Shown here one piece after another: positions 29,937-39,306 of a stretch of 64,000 nucleotides of DNA. This stretch comes from Gemmatimonadales bacterium (lineage in GTDB: Bacteria > Gemmatimonadota > Gemmatimonadetes > Gemmatimonadales > GWC2-71-9): NCBI GenBank assembly GCA_037189525.1, contig JBBCJC010000011.1, positions 11,634-75,633 of the forward strand, written 5' to 3'. The notes below the pieces were generated by a model. That model searched no databases. It was not told the DNA's origin and saw nothing but the letters and a program-made list of their open reading frames with translations. Made by a program: the position numbers and the translations under genes. How positions within the stretch are numbered: position 1 is the stretch's first letter; the number at the start of each line of letters is the position of its first letter.

Positions 29937-32792
29937 ATGGCGCAAGAATTTCTGCGGGTCCGTGGTGCGCGCGAGCACAATCTCAAGAACATCTCCGTTT
30001 CGATTCCCCGTAACCAGCTGACGGTCATCACCGGCCTGTCCGGGTCCGGAAAATCGTCGCTGGCGTTCGACACCATCTACGCCGAGGGGCAGCGGCGGTA
30101 CGTCGAGTCGCTGTCGGCCTACGCCCGGCAGTTCCTCGGCCTGATGGAAAAGCCCGACGTCGATGCCATCGAGGGTCTCTCGCCGGCCATTTCGATCGAA
30201 CAGAAGTCGACCGGGAACAATCCCCGCTCGACGGTCGGCACGGTAACGGAGATCTACGACTACATGCGCCTGCTCTGGGCGCGCGCGGGTGTGCCGCACT
30301 GTCCGAATGACGGGTCGCCAGTGACCCGGTCCAGTGCCAGCCAGATTACCGAGGCGGTTCTGGGCTGGCCCGAGGGCACCCGGATCGAGGTGCTGGGCCC
30401 GATCGTTCGGGGCCGGAAAGGCGAGTTCCGTGAACTCTTCGACGACCTGGCCAAGCGCGGGTTCGTCAGGGCCCGGGTCGACGGCACCGTCTACGAGCTT
30501 GGTGCTGTTCCCAAACTCAACCGCCGCCAGAATCACGACGTGGCCGTCATGGTCGACCGGCTGGTGGTGCGGGAACAGGATCGGAGCCGGCTGGCCGACT
30601 CGATCGAAACGGCGCTCAAAGCGGCGGACGGGATCGTCGAGTTCATTCGCTACGATCGCGGGGCGTCGGAGGGCGAGTCGGTCCTTTTTTCGGAACGGTT
30701 TGCCTGTCCCAAGTGCGGCCTGTCGATGCCCGAACTCGAGCCGCGCCAATTCTCGTTCAACTCGCCCTTCGGGGTGTGCCCCGATTGCCACGGGCTGGGC
30801 ACCCGTCGCGAAGCGGTGACCGAATTGGTCTTGGGCGACCCATCGATTTCGATTCTCGAAGGGGTCGTGCTTCCCTGGGGCGAGCCAAGCGGCTACCTGC
30901 GCAAATCGATTTTGCCGACCTTGGCCAAGGCGTTCAAGTTCGATCTCCATAGCCCCTGGAAGTCGCTGCCCGCGGCCGCGAAGGATATGCTGCTGCACGG
31001 CGTGTCCAACAAGACCTTCAAGTTCAAGATGGAAGGCGGGAAATTCAAAGGCGAGTACGAGACGGGCTGGGAGGGCATTCTCAAGAACGTCGAGCGCCGC
31101 TTTTACGAAACCCAGAGCGACACGGTCCGGCAGCAGCTGGGCGACTTCATGGTGGAGATGCCCTGTCGCACCTGTCAGGGGCGCCGCCTCAAGCCCGAGA
31201 GTCTGGCCGTCTTGCTGCACGGCAAGAGTATCGGCGAGGTGGTCGACTATGCGGTCGACGATGCGCTCGCGTTCTTCGACGGGATTCCAGTCGCGCGGGG
31301 GCGGGCCGGGGCGATCGACCCGGAAATCGGCGCGCCGATCCTCAAGGAAATCCACGATCGGCTCTCCTTCCTGCGGGACGTCGGTCTCGAGTACCTCACG
31401 CTGGGCCGCGGGGCGGGAAGCCTCTCGGGCGGTGAAGCGCAACGAATCCGGCTGGCGACCCAGATCGGGTCGCGCCTGGTGGGCGTCCTCTATATCCTCG
31501 ACGAGCCCAGCATCGGGCTCCATCAGCGCGACAACGACCGGTTGCTCAACACGCTTCGGGAGTTGCGCGATCTGGGCAACACGGTCCTGGTGGTCGAGCA
31601 CGATGAAGACACCATCCGCGCGGCCGACTACGTCGTCGATCTGGGGCCGCGGGCCGGACGCTTCGGCGGTGAGATCGTGGTTGCCGGCAGTGTCGAGGAC
31701 GTGGAGCGCCATCCCGATTCGCTGACCGGCCGCTACCTGCGCGGCGAGCTGCGGATTCCGGTGCCGGCCACCCGACGATCGATTACGCCTTCACGAAAGC
31801 TGCGCATCGTCGGGGCTCGCGCCAACAATCTCAAGAACCTGACCGTCGACATCCCGCTCGGCGTCTTTGCCGTGGTGACTGGGGTATCGGGGTCGGGCAA
31901 GTCGACTCTGATCACCGACATCCTCTATCAGTCCCTGGCACGGCAGTTCTATCGGGCCAAGGTCGTGCCGGGCGCGCACAAGACCATCGACGGGTTGCAG
32001 CACCTGGACAAAGTCATCGACATCGACCAGAGCCCGATCGGCCGGACGCCGCGGTCCAACCCGGCGACCTATACCGGTCTGTTTACCCCGATCCGCGAGC
32101 TGTTTGCGCAGCTGCCGGAAGCGAAGATACGCGGGTACGGCCCCGGGCGGTTCTCCTTCAACGTCAAAGGCGGCCGCTGCGAGTCGTGCGAAGGCGACGG
32201 GCTGGTCAAGATCGAGATGCATTTCCTGCCCGACGTCTATGTCGCGTGCGAAGTCTGCAAAGGACGCCGCTACAATCGGGAAACTCTGGAAGTGCGCTAT
32301 CGGGGCCGCAGCATTGCCGATGTGCTCGAACTGACGGTGGCCGACGGGCTGGACTTTTTCAGCGCGCAGGGCCGGATCCGCGACAAGCTCGAACTGCTCA
32401 ACGATGTCGGCCTGGGCTACCTCCATCTGGGCCAGTCGGCGACGACCTTGTCCGGAGGCGAAGCGCAGCGGGTCAAGCTCGCCACCGAACTCTCCAAGCG
32501 CGACACCGGGCGCACCCTGTACATCCTGGATGAGCCGACCACCGGGCTCCATTTCGAAGACGTCCGGCTCCTGCTCGATGTATTGCACCGGCTGGTCGAC
32601 AAGGGCAACAGCGTTCTCGTCATCGAACACAACCTCGACGTCATCAAAACGGCGGACTGGATCGTCGACATGGGGCCCGAAGGGGGCGCCAAGGGCGGAC
32701 GTGTCGTGGCGGCCGGGACGCCCGAGGCGGTGGCGCAGGTGGCGGAGAGCCATACCGGACACTTCTTGCGCCGGCTCGTTGCAGCGGGCTAG
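29937..32792 (+). CDS. uvrA: Excinuclease ABC subunit A
   Basis: GAREHNLKN, two GxSGSGKS Walker A motifs, two LSGGEAQR signatures, zinc fingers. Confidence 0.98.
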
Positions 32793-32841
32793 GCTTGGAC
32801 GGTGGTTGCGGACGTAACTCTGGCTGATTTCGAGGTCTCCT

Positions 32842-35106
32842 GTGGATAGACGATTTGTCCTGACGATGTCGCTGCTGCTCGTACCGGCTCTGGTAACCGC
32901 GCAGCAGGTCGACCGGCGCGCGGATCCGTCGCTGGTCACGGTCCAGCGGGTGTACGGGAGCGCGGACTTCCAGCCGGAGCGGTTCGGACCGACCCGGTGG
33001 CTGGGCGACGGGTCATCGTACACCACACTCGAGACGAGCGTGAGCGGCGGCGGGCGGGACATCGTGCGCTATGACACCCAAACCGGCGCGCGTGAGGTCT
33101 TGATTCCGGCGTCGCAGTTGATTCCGTCGGGCGCCAACGCCCCGCTCACCATCGAGGACTATCACTGGGGTCCCGGGCAGCGGAAGCTGCTCGTCTACAC
33201 CAACTCGAAACAGGTCTGGCGTCTCAATACCCGCGGCGACTATTGGGTGCTCGACCGCGCGTCGGGCCGGCTCAGCAAGCTGGGCGGCGATGCGGAGCCG
33301 TCGACGCTGATGTATGCCAAGTTCGATCCCGCCGGTGAGCGGGTCGGCTACGTCCGCAACAACAACATCTACGTCGAAGATCTCGCGACCGGCGCGATTA
33401 CCCAGCTGACGCACGACGGCAGCCGCACGGTCATCAACGGCAACTTCGACTGGGTCTACGAAGAAGAACTGTCGCTGCACGACGGGTGGCGCTGGAGTCC
33501 CGATGGAACCCGGATCGCGTACTGGCAGCTCGAGGCCGACCGGGTCCGGGACTTTCTGATGTATCGGACCACCGATTCGCTCTACTCCTCGATGGTGCCC
33601 GTTCAGTATCCCAAGGCGGGTGAAGACAACTCGGCGGTTCGGATCGGTGTCGTGCTGGCTACCGGGGGGGCCACTCGCTGGCTCGATATCGAGGGCGACC
33701 CGCGCAACATCTATCTGGCCCGGATGGAGTGGGCGGCGTCGAGCGACGAACTGGTGGTGCAACGGCTCAATCGGTTGCAGAATCGGCTCGACCTCCTGAT
33801 GGCCGACGCCCGGAGCGGTGCGGTGCGCACCATTCTCACCGAGCAGGATTCGGCCTGGGTCGAGGTGGTCGACGACCTGGTCTGGCTCGATGGCGGCAAG
33901 TCGTTTACCTGGGTGAGCGAGCGCGACGGCTGGACCAAGGCCTATGTGGTGTCGCGAGACGGCCGTCAGGTGCGCGCGATCACGCCGGGGGCCTATGACG
34001 TAATCGGCATCCGCGCCGTCGACGAGCGGGGTGGCTGGCTCTATTTCATCGCGTCGCCGGACAATCCGACGCAGCGGTACCTCTATCGGGTCCGGCTCGA
34101 CGGCAAAGGCAAGCTCGAACGGGTCTCGCCAGCCGGGCAGCAGGGCACCCACGTCTATAATCTCTCGCCCGATGCGCGCTGGGCCATCCATACCTTTTCG
34201 AAGTTCGGCACGCCGCCGGTGATGGCGCTGGTTCGCTTGCCGACGCATCAGACCGTCCGCACCGTGGTGACCAACACCAAGCTTGCTGCGCAGGTCGACG
34301 CGTTGCGGCGGGGGCAGGCGTCGTTTGAGCGGGTCGATATCGGGGGCGGAATCCAACTCGATGCCTGGATCATGCGGCCGCCCGGGTTCGATTCGACGAA
34401 GCGTTATCCGATTCTGTTCTCGATCTATGGCGGGCCCGGATCGCAAACGGTGCTCGACAGCTGGGGTGGCGCCAACTACCTCTGGCATCTGAGTCTGACG
34501 CAGCGGGGCATCGTGGTGGCCAGCGTGGACAACCGGGGCAGCGGGGCCCGCGGTCGCGACTGGCGCAAGATCGTCTACGGCCGTCTCGGCGTGATCGAGA
34601 CGCAGGATCAGGCTGCCGCGGCGCAGGCGTTCGCCAAGAAATCGTGGATCGATCCGACCCGGATGGGGATCTTCGGCTGGAGCTACGGCGGGTTCATGAG
34701 CCTGAACGGTCTGTTCCAGGCGCCGGATGTGTATTCGACCGCTGTTTCGGTGGCGCCGGTGACCCACTGGAAGTATTACGATACCATCTACACCGAGCGC
34801 TACAACGGGCTGCCCCAACAGAACGCGGCCGGGTATGATCAGGGGTCGCCCTTGTCGTATGTCGATCGGATGAAGGGCAACCTGCTGTTGGTCCATGGCA
34901 CCGGCGACGACAACGTGCACTATCAGAACACCGAGTCGTTGATCGATGCGCTGGTGGCGGCCAACAAGCAGTTCCGGCTGATGTCCTATCCCAATCGGAA
35001 CCACTCGATTTCCGGGGGCACCACGTCGGTCCACCTGCGGACCATGATTTCGGATTATCTGGTCGAGAAGCTCACACCGGCAGAGCCGCCCCCGGCCCGC
35101 CCCTGA
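32842..35106 (+). CDS. Dipeptidyl peptidase IV, S9B family, secreted
   Basis: Signal peptide; DWVYEEE, YPKAG, GWSYGG, YTERY, HGTGDDNVH, NH. Confidence 0.94.
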   Translation: MDRRFVLTMSLLLVPALVTAQQVDRRADPSLVTVQRVYGSADFQPERFGPTRWLGDGSSYTTLETSVSGGGRDIVRYDTQTGAREVLIPASQLIPSGANAPLTIEDYHWGPGQRKLLVYTNSKQVWRLNTRGDYWVLDRASGRLSKLGGDAEPSTLMYAKFDPAGERVGYVRNNNIYVEDLATGAITQLTHDGSRTVINGNFDWVYEEELSLHDGWRWSPDGTRIAYWQLEADRVRDFLMYRTTDSLYSSMVPVQYPKAGEDNSAVRIGVVLATGGATRWLDIEGDPRNIYLARMEWAASSDELVVQRLNRLQNRLDLLMADARSGAVRTILTEQDSAWVEVVDDLVWLDGGKSFTWVSERDGWTKAYVVSRDGRQVRAITPGAYDVIGIRAVDERGGWLYFIASPDNPTQRYLYRVRLDGKGKLERVSPAGQQGTHVYNLSPDARWAIHTFSKFGTPPVMALVRLPTHQTVRTVVTNTKLAAQVDALRRGQASFERVDIGGGIQLDAWIMRPPGFDSTKRYPILFSIYGGPGSQTVLDSWGGANYLWHLSLTQRGIVVASVDNRGSGARGRDWRKIVYGRLGVIETQDQAAAAQAFAKKSWIDPTRMGIFGWSYGGFMSLNGLFQAPDVYSTAVSVAPVTHWKYYDTIYTERYNGLPQQNAAGYDQGSPLSYVDRMKGNLLLVHGTGDDNVHYQNTESLIDALVAANKQFRLMSYPNRNHSISGGTTSVHLRTMISDYLVEKLTPAEPPPARP

Positions 35107-35137: not shown

Positions 35138-35164
35138 TGAAACATTTTGCAACGTCGGGTCGTA
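35138..35164 (+). promoter_or_regulatory. ECF sigma (SigW/SigM-like) promoter candidate for the psp-like operon
   Basis: TGAAAC-ATTTT...-CGTA with a 17-nt spacer, 38 nt upstream of the first ATG. Confidence 0.55.
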
Positions 35165-35202: not shown

Positions 35203-35496
35203 ATGGCCAACCCCGATATCGTCGTCCCGGTTTTCGGAATGATCACGGGCATCCTGACGACCGGGGCCCTCGCCTGGGGGATGGTCAGAGTGTTCCAGGG
35301 TCCGGTGGGGCAGGCCCTGGCACGGCGGATCCAGGGACGGGGCAGCGCGCCGGAGCCCGAGCTTCTCCATGAAATCGACGATCTGCGACTGCAGGTCGAT
35401 CAGATGCAGCAGCGGCTGACCGAAGCCGAGGAACGGCTCGATTTCAGTGAACGGTTGCTGGCGCAGCGGTCGTCGGGGGAGAGCGGGCGGTTCTGA
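35203..35496 (+). CDS. Small TM + coiled-coil protein, paralog 1 (PspB-like architecture)
   Basis: TM, GPVGQALARRIQG, EAEERLDFSERLLA. Confidence 0.8.
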   Translation: MANPDIVVPVFGMITGILTTGALAWGMVRVFQGPVGQALARRIQGRGSAPEPELLHEIDDLRLQVDQMQQRLTEAEERLDFSERLLAQRSSGESGRF

Positions 35497-35539
35497 GGGC
35501 GGCCCACCGGACGGTGATGTCTCGAGGACGGGAGGAACG

Positions 35540-35800
35540 ATGGAAGGGATTCTGGCGATTCTGCTCATCTTCGGCGGCGGTACGCTCGGCGTCTTGGCGT
35601 ACAGTCCGATCGGGAAGGCCTTTGCGGCACGGATCCGGGGAGACCAGTTGCCGCCGGAAACCGATCCCGCGGTCCTGGAAGAACTCGATCGGGTCAGGCA
35701 CGAATTGGCGGAGTTGGCGGAACGGGTAGATTTCGCGGAGCGCCTGCTTGCGAATCGGGGCGAAGCACCGGTGTCGAGACTGCCGGAGGTGGGGTCATGA
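35540..35800 (+). CDS. Small TM + coiled-coil protein, paralog 2
   Basis: GGAGG RBS; SPIGKAFAARIRG, ELAERVDFAERLLA. Confidence 0.8.
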   Translation: MEGILAILLIFGGGTLGVLAYSPIGKAFAARIRGDQLPPETDPAVLEELDRVRHELAELAERVDFAERLLANRGEAPVSRLPEVGS

Positions 35801-36183
35801 TGCAGGTCGTCGTTCAGGTGCCGAATCCACCTCAGCCGCCGGACGTGTCGGTGATCGTGGCGCAGCCGCCTGACCTGCCGCCGTTTCCCCCGTTCCCGCC
35901 GGGCGGCCCGCCCGAGGCACTCATTATTGCGGGTGTCGTGATCGTCGGGATCATCGTCGCCGGCATCGTGTTCGGACCGTTGCTCCGGGCGTATGCCCGT
36001 CGGATCGAGGGCAAGGGCGCCGATGCGCAGCTTGCGACCGAGGTGGACCAGCTTCGGATCCGGGTAGCCGAGCTCGAGTCGGTGCAGCATCGGGTCGCCG
36101 AATTGGAAGAGCGGGTCGACTTCTCGGAACGCCTGTTGGCCCAGGGGCGTGAGTCCCAGTCGATCGGCCGGAATCCGGGTTGA
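35797..36183 (+). CDS. Small TM + coiled-coil protein, paralog 3, with a Pro-rich N-terminus
   Basis: ATGA overlap; GPLLRAYARRIEG, ELEERVDFSERLLA. Confidence 0.8.
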   Translation: MMQVVVQVPNPPQPPDVSVIVAQPPDLPPFPPFPPGGPPEALIIAGVVIVGIIVAGIVFGPLLRAYARRIEGKGADAQLATEVDQLRIRVAELESVQHRVAELEERVDFSERLLAQGRESQSIGRNPG

Positions 36184-36185
36184 GT

Positions 36186-36581
36186 ATGTCCTGGTTCCGT
36201 AAGCATTTCGGGATGGACGCGATCGATCTCGCCATCCATGCGGTGATGACCGGCACGGTGGCGGCTTTCGTGGCCGAACTGTTCCGTGGTCCGGCCGACG
36301 ATGCGATGATCGCGGCCGTGTTGGCCGGATCGCTCGCGGTCTTCTCCTGGCGGCGGCACCGCGGTCTTGCCAAGCTGGCGCGGACCCCCGAGGGGCTCAC
36401 CACGGGGCAGATGGCTGCCGCCCGGCTGGAAGAGTTGGAGCAGCGGGTTGCCGATCTCGAAGCGGCGGAAGCCCGCGTCCTGGAGCTGGAAGAGCGGCTC
36501 GACTTTACCGAGCGCCTCCTGGCCCGGACAGCCGACCAGGCGGCCATCGCTCCGGTCGCACGCGGAGATCACCATGGGTGA
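36186..36581 (+). CDS. Two-TM + coiled-coil protein, paralog 4
   Basis: GLTTGQMAAARL, ELEERLDFTERLLA. Confidence 0.8.
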   Translation: MSWFRKHFGMDAIDLAIHAVMTGTVAAFVAELFRGPADDAMIAAVLAGSLAVFSWRRHRGLAKLARTPEGLTTGQMAAARLEELEQRVADLEAAEARVLELEERLDFTERLLARTADQAAIAPVARGDHHG

Positions 36582-36846
36582 GCTGGGCTTTTTCGCCTTG
36601 TTCGGCGCGATTGCGGCCATCGGGGCATCGCTCTTTCTCGGTCCGATCGGGCAGGCCATCGCGCGCCGGATCGCGGGTACCCCGCCCAAGGGCCGGGACG
36701 GACTCTCCACCGGCGAGATGGCCGCCGAGCGGGTTGCTGGGCTGGAGGCGAGAGTGGTCGAGCTGGAGGAGCGCCTCGACTTCACGGAGCGGTTGCTGGC
36801 GCAGGGTAACGGCGAGCCGTCGGCCTTACCCGACCGGACGCCCTGA
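36574..36846 (+). CDS. Small TM + coiled-coil protein, paralog 5
   Basis: GGAG RBS; GPIGQAIARRIAG, GLSTGEMAAERV, ELEERLDFTERLLA. Confidence 0.8.
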   Translation: MGELGFFALFGAIAAIGASLFLGPIGQAIARRIAGTPPKGRDGLSTGEMAAERVAGLEARVVELEERLDFTERLLAQGNGEPSALPDRTP

Positions 36847-36903
36847 ATTCGGCCAAACGCAGTACATTTCTCGCCTCGGTATCGGGGCGGAGGAGGACGG
36901 CGC

Positions 36904-37299
36904 ATGGTAACAAAGGACGATCTGCAGACGTTTCTCGACCGGGTCGACGGCGGGGCCGTCGAGGTCCGGGAGGTCGAGTCCGGACTCTGGCTGGTCCGCA
37001 CGCAGCAAGGGGCTGAGGTCGTGGTCCACTACTCGCCGCCGGTGGTGATCCTCCGGTTGCGCGTGATGGAAGAGCCGGCCGCGGTCGAGCGGCGGAGCGA
37101 GCTCTTCCGGCAGTTGCTCGAGCTCAATGCCCGTGACCTGGTCCACGGATCCTACGGGCTCGAGGGTGATCACATCGTGCTCACCGACACACTGGAGCTC
37201 GAGAACCTCGACTATTCGGAGTTCGAGGCGAGCTTCGACTCGCTCACCTTGGCCCTGTCATCGCATCTGGGCGCTCTGGCGCCGTACCGCGAAAGGTAA
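36904..37299 (+). CDS. YbjN/CesT (type III chaperone-like) domain protein
   Basis: Acidic 131 aa; LFRQLLELNARDLVHGSYGL, LENLDYSEF; GGAGGAGG RBS. Confidence 0.75.
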   Translation: MVTKDDLQTFLDRVDGGAVEVREVESGLWLVRTQQGAEVVVHYSPPVVILRLRVMEEPAAVERRSELFRQLLELNARDLVHGSYGLEGDHIVLTDTLELENLDYSEFEASFDSLTLALSSHLGALAPYRER

Positions 37300-37306
37300 G
37301 CCGCGA

Positions 37307-38065
37307 ATGGGTATCTTCGAACGTTTTTCGACCATGCTGCGGTCGAACATCAACGACCTCATCAGTCGGGCCGAGAACCCCGAGAAGATGTTGAATCAGT
37401 TGATTCTCGACATGAAGACGCAGCTGGCCAAAGCCAAGCAGGAAGCGGCGGGCGCCATCGCGGACGAAAAGAAGCTGCAGGCCGACGCCGAAGGGCTCAA
37501 GAAGCAGGCGGAGGACTGGGAGCGGCGCGCCATGCTGGCCGTGCAGGAGGGCCGGGACGACCTCGCCAAGCAGGCGCTGATGCGCTACAACGAGGCCCTG
37601 CAAGGTGCGCAGCAGCTGCACGAGACCTGGGCCAAGCACCGCGCCGATACCGAGAACCTGAAGCTCCAGCTCCGCCAGCTCCACGATAAGATCGAGGAAG
37701 CCAAGCGGAAGAAGAACATCCTGGTCGCCCGGGCCAAGCGCGCCGAAGCGCAGCAGCGGATCCAGCAGACCATGTCGGGGATGTCGGACAAGAGCGCGTT
37801 CGAGTCCTTCGATCGGATGGCCGAGAAGATCGAGTCGATCGAGCGGAAGGCGCTCGCGGCCGCCGAACTGCAGCAGGAGTTCGAGGGCGACGACCTGACC
37901 CAGCAGTTCAAGCAGCTCGAGTACCATGGCTCGTCCGATCAGCAGTTGATCGAACTCAAAGCCAAGATGGGACTGCTCAAGGGCGGCAGCGACGAGGCCA
38001 AGAAGCTCGGCCGGGGCGAGGCCGTGGTGGATGATCCGGAAGTTCTGGAGGATGATGGCCGATAG
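37307..38065 (+). CDS. pspA: PspA/IM30 (bacterial ESCRT-III-like) protein
   Basis: MGIFERFSTMLRSNINDLISRAENPEKMLNQLILDM, GRDDLAKQAL, FDRMAEKI, ELKAKMG. Confidence 0.93.
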   Translation: MGIFERFSTMLRSNINDLISRAENPEKMLNQLILDMKTQLAKAKQEAAGAIADEKKLQADAEGLKKQAEDWERRAMLAVQEGRDDLAKQALMRYNEALQGAQQLHETWAKHRADTENLKLQLRQLHDKIEEAKRKKNILVARAKRAEAQQRIQQTMSGMSDKSAFESFDRMAEKIESIERKALAAAELQQEFEGDDLTQQFKQLEYHGSSDQQLIELKAKMGLLKGGSDEAKKLGRGEAVVDDPEVLEDDGR

Positions 38066-38078
38066 GCCCACGCCGTGG

Positions 38079-38118
38079 AAAAATGCAATGAGGGCCATTC
38101 GGCCCTCGTTGCATTTTG
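38079..38118 (+). terminator. Rho-independent terminator after pspA
   Basis: aaaatgcaatgagggcc-attc-ggccctcgttgcatttt. Confidence 0.8.
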
Positions 38119-38232: not shown

Positions 38233-39306
38233 ATGGATACCCCCCGCTACCTGATCATTGCCGACGGCAACTTCCACCCCCTGGAATCGAAGACCGCGAA
38301 CTCCGTCATCCGGTACCATCCGTCGCGGGTCGTCGCCGTGCTCGATCGGCGGACGGCAGGGAAAACCGTTCAGGACGTGCTGGGGTTCGGTGGCGCGACG
38401 CCGATCGTCGGATCGATCGAGGAGGGCCTGGCCTTCAAGCCGACGGCCGTGATGATCGGTATCGCCCCTGCCGGCGGCCGGTTGCCGGACGAGTGGAAGG
38501 GCTGGCTGACCAAGTCGCTCGATGCGGGGGCCGATCTGGTCAGCGGGTTGCACACGTTCCTCTCCGATGATCCCGACCTTGCCGCGCAGGCCAAGCGGCT
38601 CAGCCGGTCCATCTACGACGCCCGGAAGGCCCCGGCCAACCTGCCGATTGCGGCGGGCGAAGCGCGGCTGGTCGATCCGTTCGTGGTCCTGACTGTCGGG
38701 ACGGACTGCAACGTCGGCAAGATGACGGCGCAGCTCCAGCTGGTCGAAGGCCTCAAGGCGCGCGGGTTGCGGACCCGGTTCGTCGCGACCGGGCAGACCG
38801 GCATCTTCATCGAGGGGTGGGGCACGGCGGTCGACGCCGTGATCGCCGACTTCATCGCGGGTGCGGCCGAGGATCTGGTGCTCCAGGGCGCCAAGGACGC
38901 GGACATCGTGCTGGTCGAAGGCCAGGGCAGCATCAATCACCCAGGCTACTCGGGCGTCACGGTCGGCTTGCTGCACGGGTCCTGCCCCGATGCCTTGATC
39001 CTCTGCCACCAGGCGACCCGGAGCCACATCGGCGAGTATCGGACGACGCCGTGGCTCAAGATCCCGCCTCTGTCCCGCTATGTCGAGCTCTACGAGATGC
39101 TCGGCTCGGCGGTGCATCCGACCAAGGTGGTGGGTATCTGCCTCAACACCTACGATCTCAACGAGGCGGATGCGATCAAGGCGTGCCAGGCTGCCGCCGC
39201 CGAAACGGGGCTGCCGGCAACCGACCCGGTCCGGTTCGATGCGGCGCCGCTGCTCAACGCCTTGGTGCGCGAGCGGGAGAACTATCTGGAGCGTCGGGCG
39301 CGGTAA
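38233..39306 (+). CDS. DUF1611-family P-loop protein
   Basis: GIAPAGGRLP, SGLH, VGTDCNVGKMT, ATGQTG, DFIAGA, VEGQGS, LLHGS. Confidence 0.88.
   Translation: MDTPRYLIIADGNFHPLESKTANSVIRYHPSRVVAVLDRRTAGKTVQDVLGFGGATPIVGSIEEGLAFKPTAVMIGIAPAGGRLPDEWKGWLTKSLDAGADLVSGLHTFLSDDPDLAAQAKRLSRSIYDARKAPANLPIAAGEARLVDPFVVLTVGTDCNVGKMTAQLQLVEGLKARGLRTRFVATGQTGIFIEGWGTAVDAVIADFIAGAAEDLVLQGAKDADIVLVEGQGSINHPGYSGVTVGLLHGSCPDALILCHQATRSHIGEYRTTPWLKIPPLSRYVELYEMLGSAVHPTKVVGICLNTYDLNEADAIKACQAAAAETGLPATDPVRFDAAPLLNALVRERENYLERRAR

Follow-up and report, generated by a model that had tools for sequence, protein, structure and literature searches.

A tandem array of small membrane proteins ahead of CesT and pspA in Gemmatimonadales, an apparently undescribed variant of the Psp system

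We analyzed a 64,000-nt stretch of DNA from a Gemmatimonadales bacterium (assembly GCA_037189525.1, contig JBBCJC010000011.1, positions 11,634 to 75,633 of the forward strand; hereafter the window), in which a tandem array of small membrane-protein genes precedes a gene for a CesT/Tir-like (YbjN-like) chaperone-fold protein and pspA, whose product is ESCRT-III-like. An earlier sequence-only reading had placed five tandem genes of 86–131 amino acids, a CesT-like gene and pspA here, and all of them were found where it put them, on the + strand. Paralog g1 (35203..35496, 97 amino acids, class E) has one predicted transmembrane helix, an amphipathic helix and a coiled coil with ERLDFSERLLA; g2 (35540..35800, 86 amino acids, class B, the commonest class) has a transmembrane helix with a conserved FGGG; g3 (35797..36183, 128 amino acids, class A), whose start overlaps the g2 stop, carries a proline-rich N-terminal extension ahead of its transmembrane helix; g4 (36186..36581, 131 amino acids, class D) has two predicted membrane helices, the motif GLTTGQMAA and a coiled coil; and g5 (36574..36846, 90 amino acids, class G, the sister of class D) overlaps g4 by 8 nt. 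The CesT-like gene (36904..37299, 131 amino acids) matches PF22550 CesT_Tir_1 with 86.5 bits (cut-off 27, E 1.9e-24), and pspA (37307..38065, 252 amino acids), a single copy in a 4.65-Mb genome estimated to be 98% complete, matches PF04012 PspA_IM30 with 167 bits (cut-off 33.9, E 6.2e-49). No Pfam or NCBIfam family was assigned to g1–g5. The intergenic gaps from g1 to pspA are 43, −4, 2, −8, 57 and 7 nt, and upstream of g1 lies a match, overlooked in the earlier reading, to the sigmaW-like promoter motif TGAAAC-N17-CGTA of extracytoplasmic function (ECF) sigma factors (35138..35164, + strand). Downstream of pspA, a 17-bp inverted repeat (38080..38117, + strand; −42.6 kcal/mol, z −7.0) is likely a terminator or a stabilizing hairpin; of the terminator proposed earlier the hairpin itself stands, but its U-tract is imperfect on the + strand and a terminator scan called the − strand only. 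Taken together with the comparisons below, we consider the locus a real, conserved and apparently undescribed Psp variant, in which an ECF-type operon carries an expanded family of PspB-like membrane proteins before CesT-pspA.

The five paralogs share 33–51% pairwise protein identity, and all of them end in ER(L/V)DFxERLLA, as had been noted. The exact pattern ER(L/V)DFxERLLA has five matches in the six-frame translation of the genome, all inside the array. The juxtamembrane motif (G/S)Px(G/L)xAxAxRIxG is present in the four paralogs g1, g2, g3 and g5, and GL(T/S)TG(Q/E)MAA is common to g4 and g5, both as previously claimed. The build ascribed to every gene, a transmembrane helix followed by a coiled coil, holds for g1, on hydropathy and an AlphaFold2 model, and is likewise predicted in g2, g3 and g5, but g4 departs from it with two hydrophobic helices. 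The g1 model (predicted local distance difference test score 91) has helices at residues 4–32, of transmembrane length, 34–47, after a conserved proline, and 52–94; that of g4 has helices at 3–8, 12–32, 38–66 and 73–121. Because basic residues come after the transmembrane helix, the positive-inside rule predicts a cytoplasmic C-terminal helix, and each paralog is predicted to have a membrane anchor that is followed, on the cytoplasmic side, by a basic amphipathic helix and a coiled coil. Foldseek found no match of the g1 model to the Protein Data Bank (PDB) at E<=0.001, and a PDB sequence search returned generic transmembrane plus coiled-coil matches alone (best E 0.0096).

The conserved end of the coiled coil was characterized in 474 of 479 array proteins anchored on the motif, so that R(−3), F and E(+2) are fixed by the anchoring pattern. 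At the unanchored positions E(−4) is conserved in 96%, D(−1) in 95% and L(+5) in 96%, and in a 75-sequence alignment made without anchoring R78, F81, E83 and R84 are invariant. Positions −16, −13, −9, −6, −2 and +5 relative to F are 82–100% hydrophobic and form a clean heptad, which leaves D, F and R(+3) at heptad positions b, c and f, outside the a/d core, and therefore suggests a shared binding surface. The heptad preceding the motif contains R-h-x-x-h-E in 277 of the 474 proteins (in g3, g4 and g5, not in g1 and g2); this pattern favors parallel trimeric coiled coils in the account of PMC3653964, and E. coli PspB and PspC likewise have it. We also observed, about 14 residues past the invariant F, an L-(P/G) motif that often follows R/Q/K and is present in 245 of the 474 paralog tails (shuffled: mean 97, maximum 119), while PspA tails carry a similar (K/R)(Q/A)(L/I)GxG motif (window 37984-38004). 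The paralog tail motif is kept in genomes without CesT, and the two may be a shared linear motif for some partner.

Linkage of the array to pspA is conserved among relatives. From the best 80 of 428 matches, all labeled Gemmatimonadota and mostly Gemmatimonadales except for one unclassified record, we obtained 79 loci, which, having been selected for similarity to g1, do not count as independent; 67 of these lead straight into (CesT-)pspA, 8 end at a contig edge and 4 are solo genes. A profile built from 75 sequences had matches in 130 of 151 genomes sampled within the phylum, including 73/73 of the window's own family, 27/31 of the sister family f2 (few and weak matches) and 0/9 and 0/3 of two distant families. 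The profile search yielded 4,039 clusters at 50% identity, and the names among 120 listed homologs are 'hypothetical' or scattered automatic ones. Array size has a median of 6 and a maximum of 13 genes in 68 promoter-bearing arrays. Outside the own family, a lone family gene precedes CesT-pspA in G079 and G102, from two other families of the taxonomic class, so the link to pspA is probably older than the expansion; three genomes of a further family, f7, have no family gene before CesT-pspA. The plasmids and viral contigs that were searched held no family member, and thus no sign of a mobile origin was seen there. One match in a more distant family (G056) was set aside as probably an FtsL-like false positive, as it lies in what we take to be a cell-division cluster. 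A search of long proteins (231-2000 amino acids) gave 3 matches; the top match and three other long matches look like frameshifted read-throughs of neighboring paralogs and were not accepted as fusions.

The promoter motif is conserved as well. TGAAAC-N17-CGTA was found upstream of 59 of 81 arrays under a strict definition and 71 of 81 under a relaxed one (shuffles gave a mean of 0.35 and a maximum of 3, the reverse strand 1), and TGAAAC ... CGTA is given as the consensus of Bacillus subtilis sigmaW promoters (PMC5758882). In the sister family the motif lies 55-104 nt before CesT at 6/6 loci with CesT and no array and is absent from 2 pspA loci without CesT; among 68 arrays it stands before CesT in 1 and inside the array in 2. 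As the motif precedes the arrays here and directly precedes CesT in the sister family, a single operon is supported, and the co-transcription implied by the sequence-only reading is likely. This is most simply read as an expansion of the array between an ancestral promoter and CesT-pspA, such that pspA would be transcribed through the array. Scanning for sigma-70 promoters gave no match in front of the array. Gaps of <=10 nt make up 283 of 407 across relatives, and since start choice favored overlaps these were not used as operon evidence. In one RNA run, 0.08 of words matched, and its contigs, which covered part of pspA and short pieces alone, have no bearing on co-transcription. A candidate sigma factor for this promoter, at G000:C5:1122376-1122981 in the window's own genome (G000), has SigW NF007223 as its best model (1 of 25 sigma-domain matches scanned) and is followed by an anti-sigma-like gene. 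A copy of TGAAAC-N17-CGTA at L209:7992-8018 (G000:C5:1122991) overlaps the stop of this SigW-like gene and the start of the anti-sigma gene, as an internal promoter or by chance. Other high-scoring motifs in the same genome lie at C2:709530, C2:439338, C1:135429, C3:742050, C2:688225, C3:98646 and C2:461710. Behind them lie what we take to be ABC-permease and transporter genes, genes for small membrane proteins, an efflux-like operon and PadR-like genes; as a group they look like an envelope-stress regulon.

We propose to read the locus as the phage-shock (Psp) membrane-stress operon in a Gemmatimonadales version: the small proteins would serve PspA as oligomeric membrane adaptors, standing in for the PspB and PspC that are missing, and we put the probability of this reading at roughly 0.5. 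Envelope stress would release a SigW-like sigma factor and lead to transcription of the whole operon. The coiled coils would then associate in parallel, as homo- and hetero-oligomers that are probably trimeric, and the near-invariant E, D, F and R of ExRhDFxER, outside the a/d core, would form one docking surface common to all paralogs, which would recruit or nucleate PspA at the stressed membrane. The class-specific transmembrane and outer segments might provide each paralog with its own membrane partner or site. A complex prediction with three copies of g2 (residues 20-80) and PspA residues 1-226, both given as alignments, scored 0.41 against 0.34 for one unrelated control, and so counts neither for nor against binding.

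Several observations weigh against the adaptor reading. Docking of the motif on PspA is suggested by gene order and analogy, and E. coli PspB is described as not binding PspA directly (PMC3068692). The trimer-favoring R-h-x-x-h-E occurs in dimers too (PMC3653964) and is present in just 2 of 73 proteins of class B, the commonest class. The candidate sigma factor, at 153 bits, is below the SigW cut-off of 209, and no promoter motif lies within 600 nt upstream of its gene. The DFxERLL signature belongs to the array family and not to PspB, and hhalign against PspB gave probabilities of 26%, 34% and, with a wider profile, 9%, in two different registers and with a shallow PspB profile. This last comparison is under-powered for want of a deep PspB profile, all 120 listed homologs being >=72% identical to E. 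coli PspB and plasmids adding none of use; in the 26-34% alignments the end of the PspB zipper pairs with the heptad preceding the motif. The array is also missing from 8/8 pspA loci examined in the sister family, and family genes occur away from pspA. Five further members lie elsewhere in the window's own genome, G079 carries a three-gene array with a full TGAAAC-N17-CGTA that is unlinked to pspA (L213:6250-7350, C72), in several sister-family genomes divergent pairs have a histidine kinase gene on one side and an NtrC-type regulator gene on the other, and a TM2 domain (PF05154) is found fused to the family's coiled-coil motif.

This last group of observations bears on the main alternative, which is possible, if on balance unlikely, namely that the small proteins are stand-alone envelope-stress effectors which share a promoter with pspA and do not bind PspA; each class would have its own target, and the proteins would keep harmful membrane proteins or peptides shielded or sequestered, in the way PspBC handle mislocalized secretins, or modulate other membrane partners, for instance histidine kinases. 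Such effectors would fit family genes in operons without pspA, several of them behind the same promoter motif, as well as the sister family's CesT-pspA without an array, the class-specific conservation of transmembrane segments (such as FGGG in class B) and a copy number of 1 to 13, as in birth-and-death defense-like families; PspBC, moreover, are reported to counter secretin toxicity on their own (PMC5596341). They fit less well with an expansion that occurred mostly at the pspA locus (67/79 loci) and with a link to pspA that is present in other families of the class and outlives the loss of CesT, and with a single near-invariant motif on the cytoplasmic side, a shared partner is more to be expected than a range of different ones. 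The unlinked array of G079 coexists with the single family gene that precedes CesT-pspA in the same genome.

The family genes outside the pspA locus fall into several settings. The pairs of family genes that lie between kinase and regulator genes in the sister family (L216:5212-8557, L217, L170, L158, L164 and L172) encode proteins of the ISEGQRFTTRLL type, in which the salt-bridge pair has lost its R as well as its E, and at three of these loci the same promoter motif lies in front. No family gene is placed within the closest kinase-regulator pair of the window's own genome (C1:270324-272968). The TM2 fusions are found at G000:C2:654100-654513 (L193) and in L201, L202, L204, L205 and L207, with CGAAAC-N17-CGTA upstream of the fusion in the own genome and three relatives. 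A divergent solo gene of the ENRFLQQLL type (L211:5675-5950 in G000:C3, and L160-L162) keeps its position in other families of the taxonomic class, between genes that are presumably bshC-like and murJ-like. Another solo gene lies directly downstream of a PadR regulator (L210:6667-7616, G000:C2). We also noted a band-7/flotillin gene (PF01145) at L212:7147-10750 (G000:C1:135146-138749), next to a gene we take to be YqiJ-like and just upstream of a 72-amino-acid membrane gene with the same promoter motif. In a published survey, band-7/flotillin operons are proposed to act with PspA encoded elsewhere, and PadR systems are listed among Psp partners (PMC11237479).

It is improbable that the shared motif is instead the binding site of the CesT-like chaperone, which would then bridge the membrane proteins to PspA. 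In favor of this, most loci have CesT between the array and pspA, proteins of the CesT/Tir fold are mediators of protein-protein contacts, and a CesT-PspA dyad is known (PMC11237479). At 9 loci, however, the array joins pspA directly without CesT, and CesT_Tir_1 was not found genome-wide in 8/8 searched genomes with such a locus (positive control 5/5), which may be one lineage and whose completeness is mostly not established, some being incomplete. Paralog motifs are intact in these genomes, and the sister family keeps CesT while the motif is altered. Since the link between array and pspA outlasts the loss of CesT, the persistent link is with pspA and not with the chaperone. The chaperone proposed as a component of the system by the sequence-only reading therefore does adjoin pspA as CesT_Tir_1 but is not an obligatory partner.

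Clustering of 479 proteins from 83 arrays defined the paralog classes used here. The order of classes is E-B-A-D-G in the window and typically E-B-A-F-D-G-C in close relatives, and of the 68 promoter-bearing arrays 57 have class B, 56 class A and 51 class C. The best match of a protein lies in another genome for 464 of the 479 and in its own array for 15. On a quick tree the class labels change 20 times, against a shuffle mean of 78, with D joined to G; neither A nor C forms a single clade, and many branch points are left open. The ratio of nonsynonymous to synonymous substitution rates (dN/dS) is 0.04-0.21 for 8 ortholog pairs between the window and its two closest relatives, G005 and G021, from both of which g5 is missing. 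As claimed earlier, the motif codons vary at synonymous sites between paralogs, and a recent DNA duplication is ruled out by repeats that are 63-79% identical and a dS between paralogs of about 0.9-1.7, so that selection, indicated by dN/dS and by best matches outside the own array, accounts for the conserved motif. The paralogs, as judged from their sequences, are old, position-conserved classes under purifying selection. We regard it as hardly probable that a single PspB-like gene was expanded for dosage or near-neutrally, with interchangeable copies and a motif serving only as the coiled-coil self-assembly core. In favor of such an expansion, copy number varies freely, g5 is missing from close relatives, one copy or none suffices in other families, and the quick tree does not recover clusters A and C as monophyletic. 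Against it, class order is kept across genomes, best matches and dN/dS are as given above, non-core positions are among the conserved residues, and each class retains its own topology, be it one or two helices or the proline-rich extension.

A more far-reaching version of the adaptor reading, which we regard as doubtful, is a mix-and-match recruitment code for bacterial ESCRT-III, whereby up to 13 anciently diverged paralogs would combine in hetero-trimers, their varied membrane and outer segments would read different kinds of damage, and the invariant coiled-coil surface would nucleate PspA. If true, this would be an independently evolved bacterial counterpart of the eukaryotic upstream ESCRT adaptors. 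The combinatorial sensor put forward by the sequence-only reading is a conjecture from gene order and analogy. How bacterial ESCRT-III is targeted to damaged membrane is understood for a few models (PspBC, LiaI and PspM), and the order studied here, abundant and for the most part uncultured, has one PspA, no partner of the PspBC/LiaI/PspM type, and an unnamed family (~4,000 clusters at 50% identity) in ordered arrays within the pspA operon. The small size of these proteins and their defined motif make the recruitment of PspA, and whether it is combinatorial, directly testable, and the conserved ECF promoter motif outlines an envelope-stress regulon for Gemmatimonadota.

The operon is flanked by uvrA, a DPP IV peptidase gene (29937-35106) and DUF1611 (38233-39306). 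In 101 loci, duplicates included, uvrA is near pspA in 62, DUF1611 in 79 and DPP IV in 30, and the gene next to the operon in relatives is DUF1611 in 34/70 and a homolog of a permease, presumably AI-2E-like, in 31/70. The two-component genes adjoining the window are near the array in just 3 of the 101 loci and are not conserved.

We found no published description of the array in the literature on Gemmatimonad PspA/PspB, PspA-CesT, PspB-like and bacterial ESCRT-III accessory proteins, most subscription journals lying outside the search. The closest described arrangement is the CesT/Tir-PspA dyad (Ravi et al. 2024, PMC11237479), with the same CesT_Tir_1 gene immediately upstream of pspA (7 nt here); the passages and the one supplementary file covered here describe the dyad and do not mention a small transmembrane coiled-coil array or Gemmatimonadota. 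In larger dyad operons the addition is band-7/flotillin with an AAA ATPase, or else a fused spermidine synthase or an ATP-grasp ligase (PMC11237479), whereas the neighbors of the array operon are the DPP IV peptidase and DUF1611 and a band-7/flotillin gene is elsewhere in the genome. The article text of Popp 2022 (PMC9239133), taken apart from its external data files, contains no mention of Gemmat, CesT or YbjN. LiaI-LiaH of B. subtilis likewise pairs a small membrane protein with a co-induced PspA homolog, which LiaI recruits (PMC7619361); the array differs in having many paralogs, and the genome has no match to the LiaI-LiaF-like transmembrane domain PF18917 (control positive in B. subtilis). 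The sigmaW promoters of B. subtilis have the same TGAAAC ... CGTA, the cognate sigma factor here being a candidate below the SigW cut-off. In B. subtilis, pspA-ydjGHI is under sigmaW control. Its YdjGHI proteins, as described in PMC11237479, are unrelated to the array proteins. PspM (Rv2743c) of Actinobacteria is, as proposed for the array family, a lineage-specific integral membrane partner encoded with pspA (PMC11237479), and just 2/75 family members match its model NF047839, weakly (best E 0.0043).

The array family resembles PspB in its predicted build: both are small proteins, linked to pspA, with an N-terminal transmembrane helix ending in proline and a cytoplasmic coiled coil with R-h-x-x-h-E. 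No named family fits, in agreement with the earlier reading, as g1–g5 and the 75 members fall below all PspB cut-offs; 2/75 members match Pfam PspB (PF06667) at E<=0.05 (best 0.018) and 13/75 weakly match TIGR02976 PspB (best 3e-4; g3 E 0.0057, far below the cut-off), with 16/75 matching GspM. In the reverse direction 0/41 genomes had a match above the PspB cut-offs, and of 22 PspB-model matches at E<=0.05 the family supplies 16, of which 9 were assigned by coordinates and 7 were confirmed; for the GspM control the figure is at least 13 of 68, counted by coordinates alone. The nearest named cluster in the Atlas is PspB at 0.77, a lead only. From these comparisons we consider remote homology to PspB slightly better than an even bet, and we do not file the family as PspB. 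The absence of pspC and pspF noted near the array extends to the whole genome, as does that of LiaI: PspC (PF04024) has no match in the 98% complete genome (control positive in 8/14 genomes), and of 16 sigma54-activator-like matches none is above the PspF cut-off and none lies on the array's contig. The array thus differs from pspFABC in lacking PspC and PspF, in having an ECF-type rather than a sigma54 promoter, and in placing up to 13 divergent copies upstream of pspA where pspFABC has one or two PspB; PspB duplicates are themselves recorded in some operons (PMC11237479). In E. coli, PspB is reported to self-associate and to bind PspC, whose leucine zipper is required for contact with PspA (PMC3068692), and PspBC, like LiaI, are described as recruiting PspA/LiaH (PMC7619361). 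Because the C-terminus of PspC is described as a divergent PspB domain (PMC11237479), a PspB-like coil could itself be the PspA-binding part.

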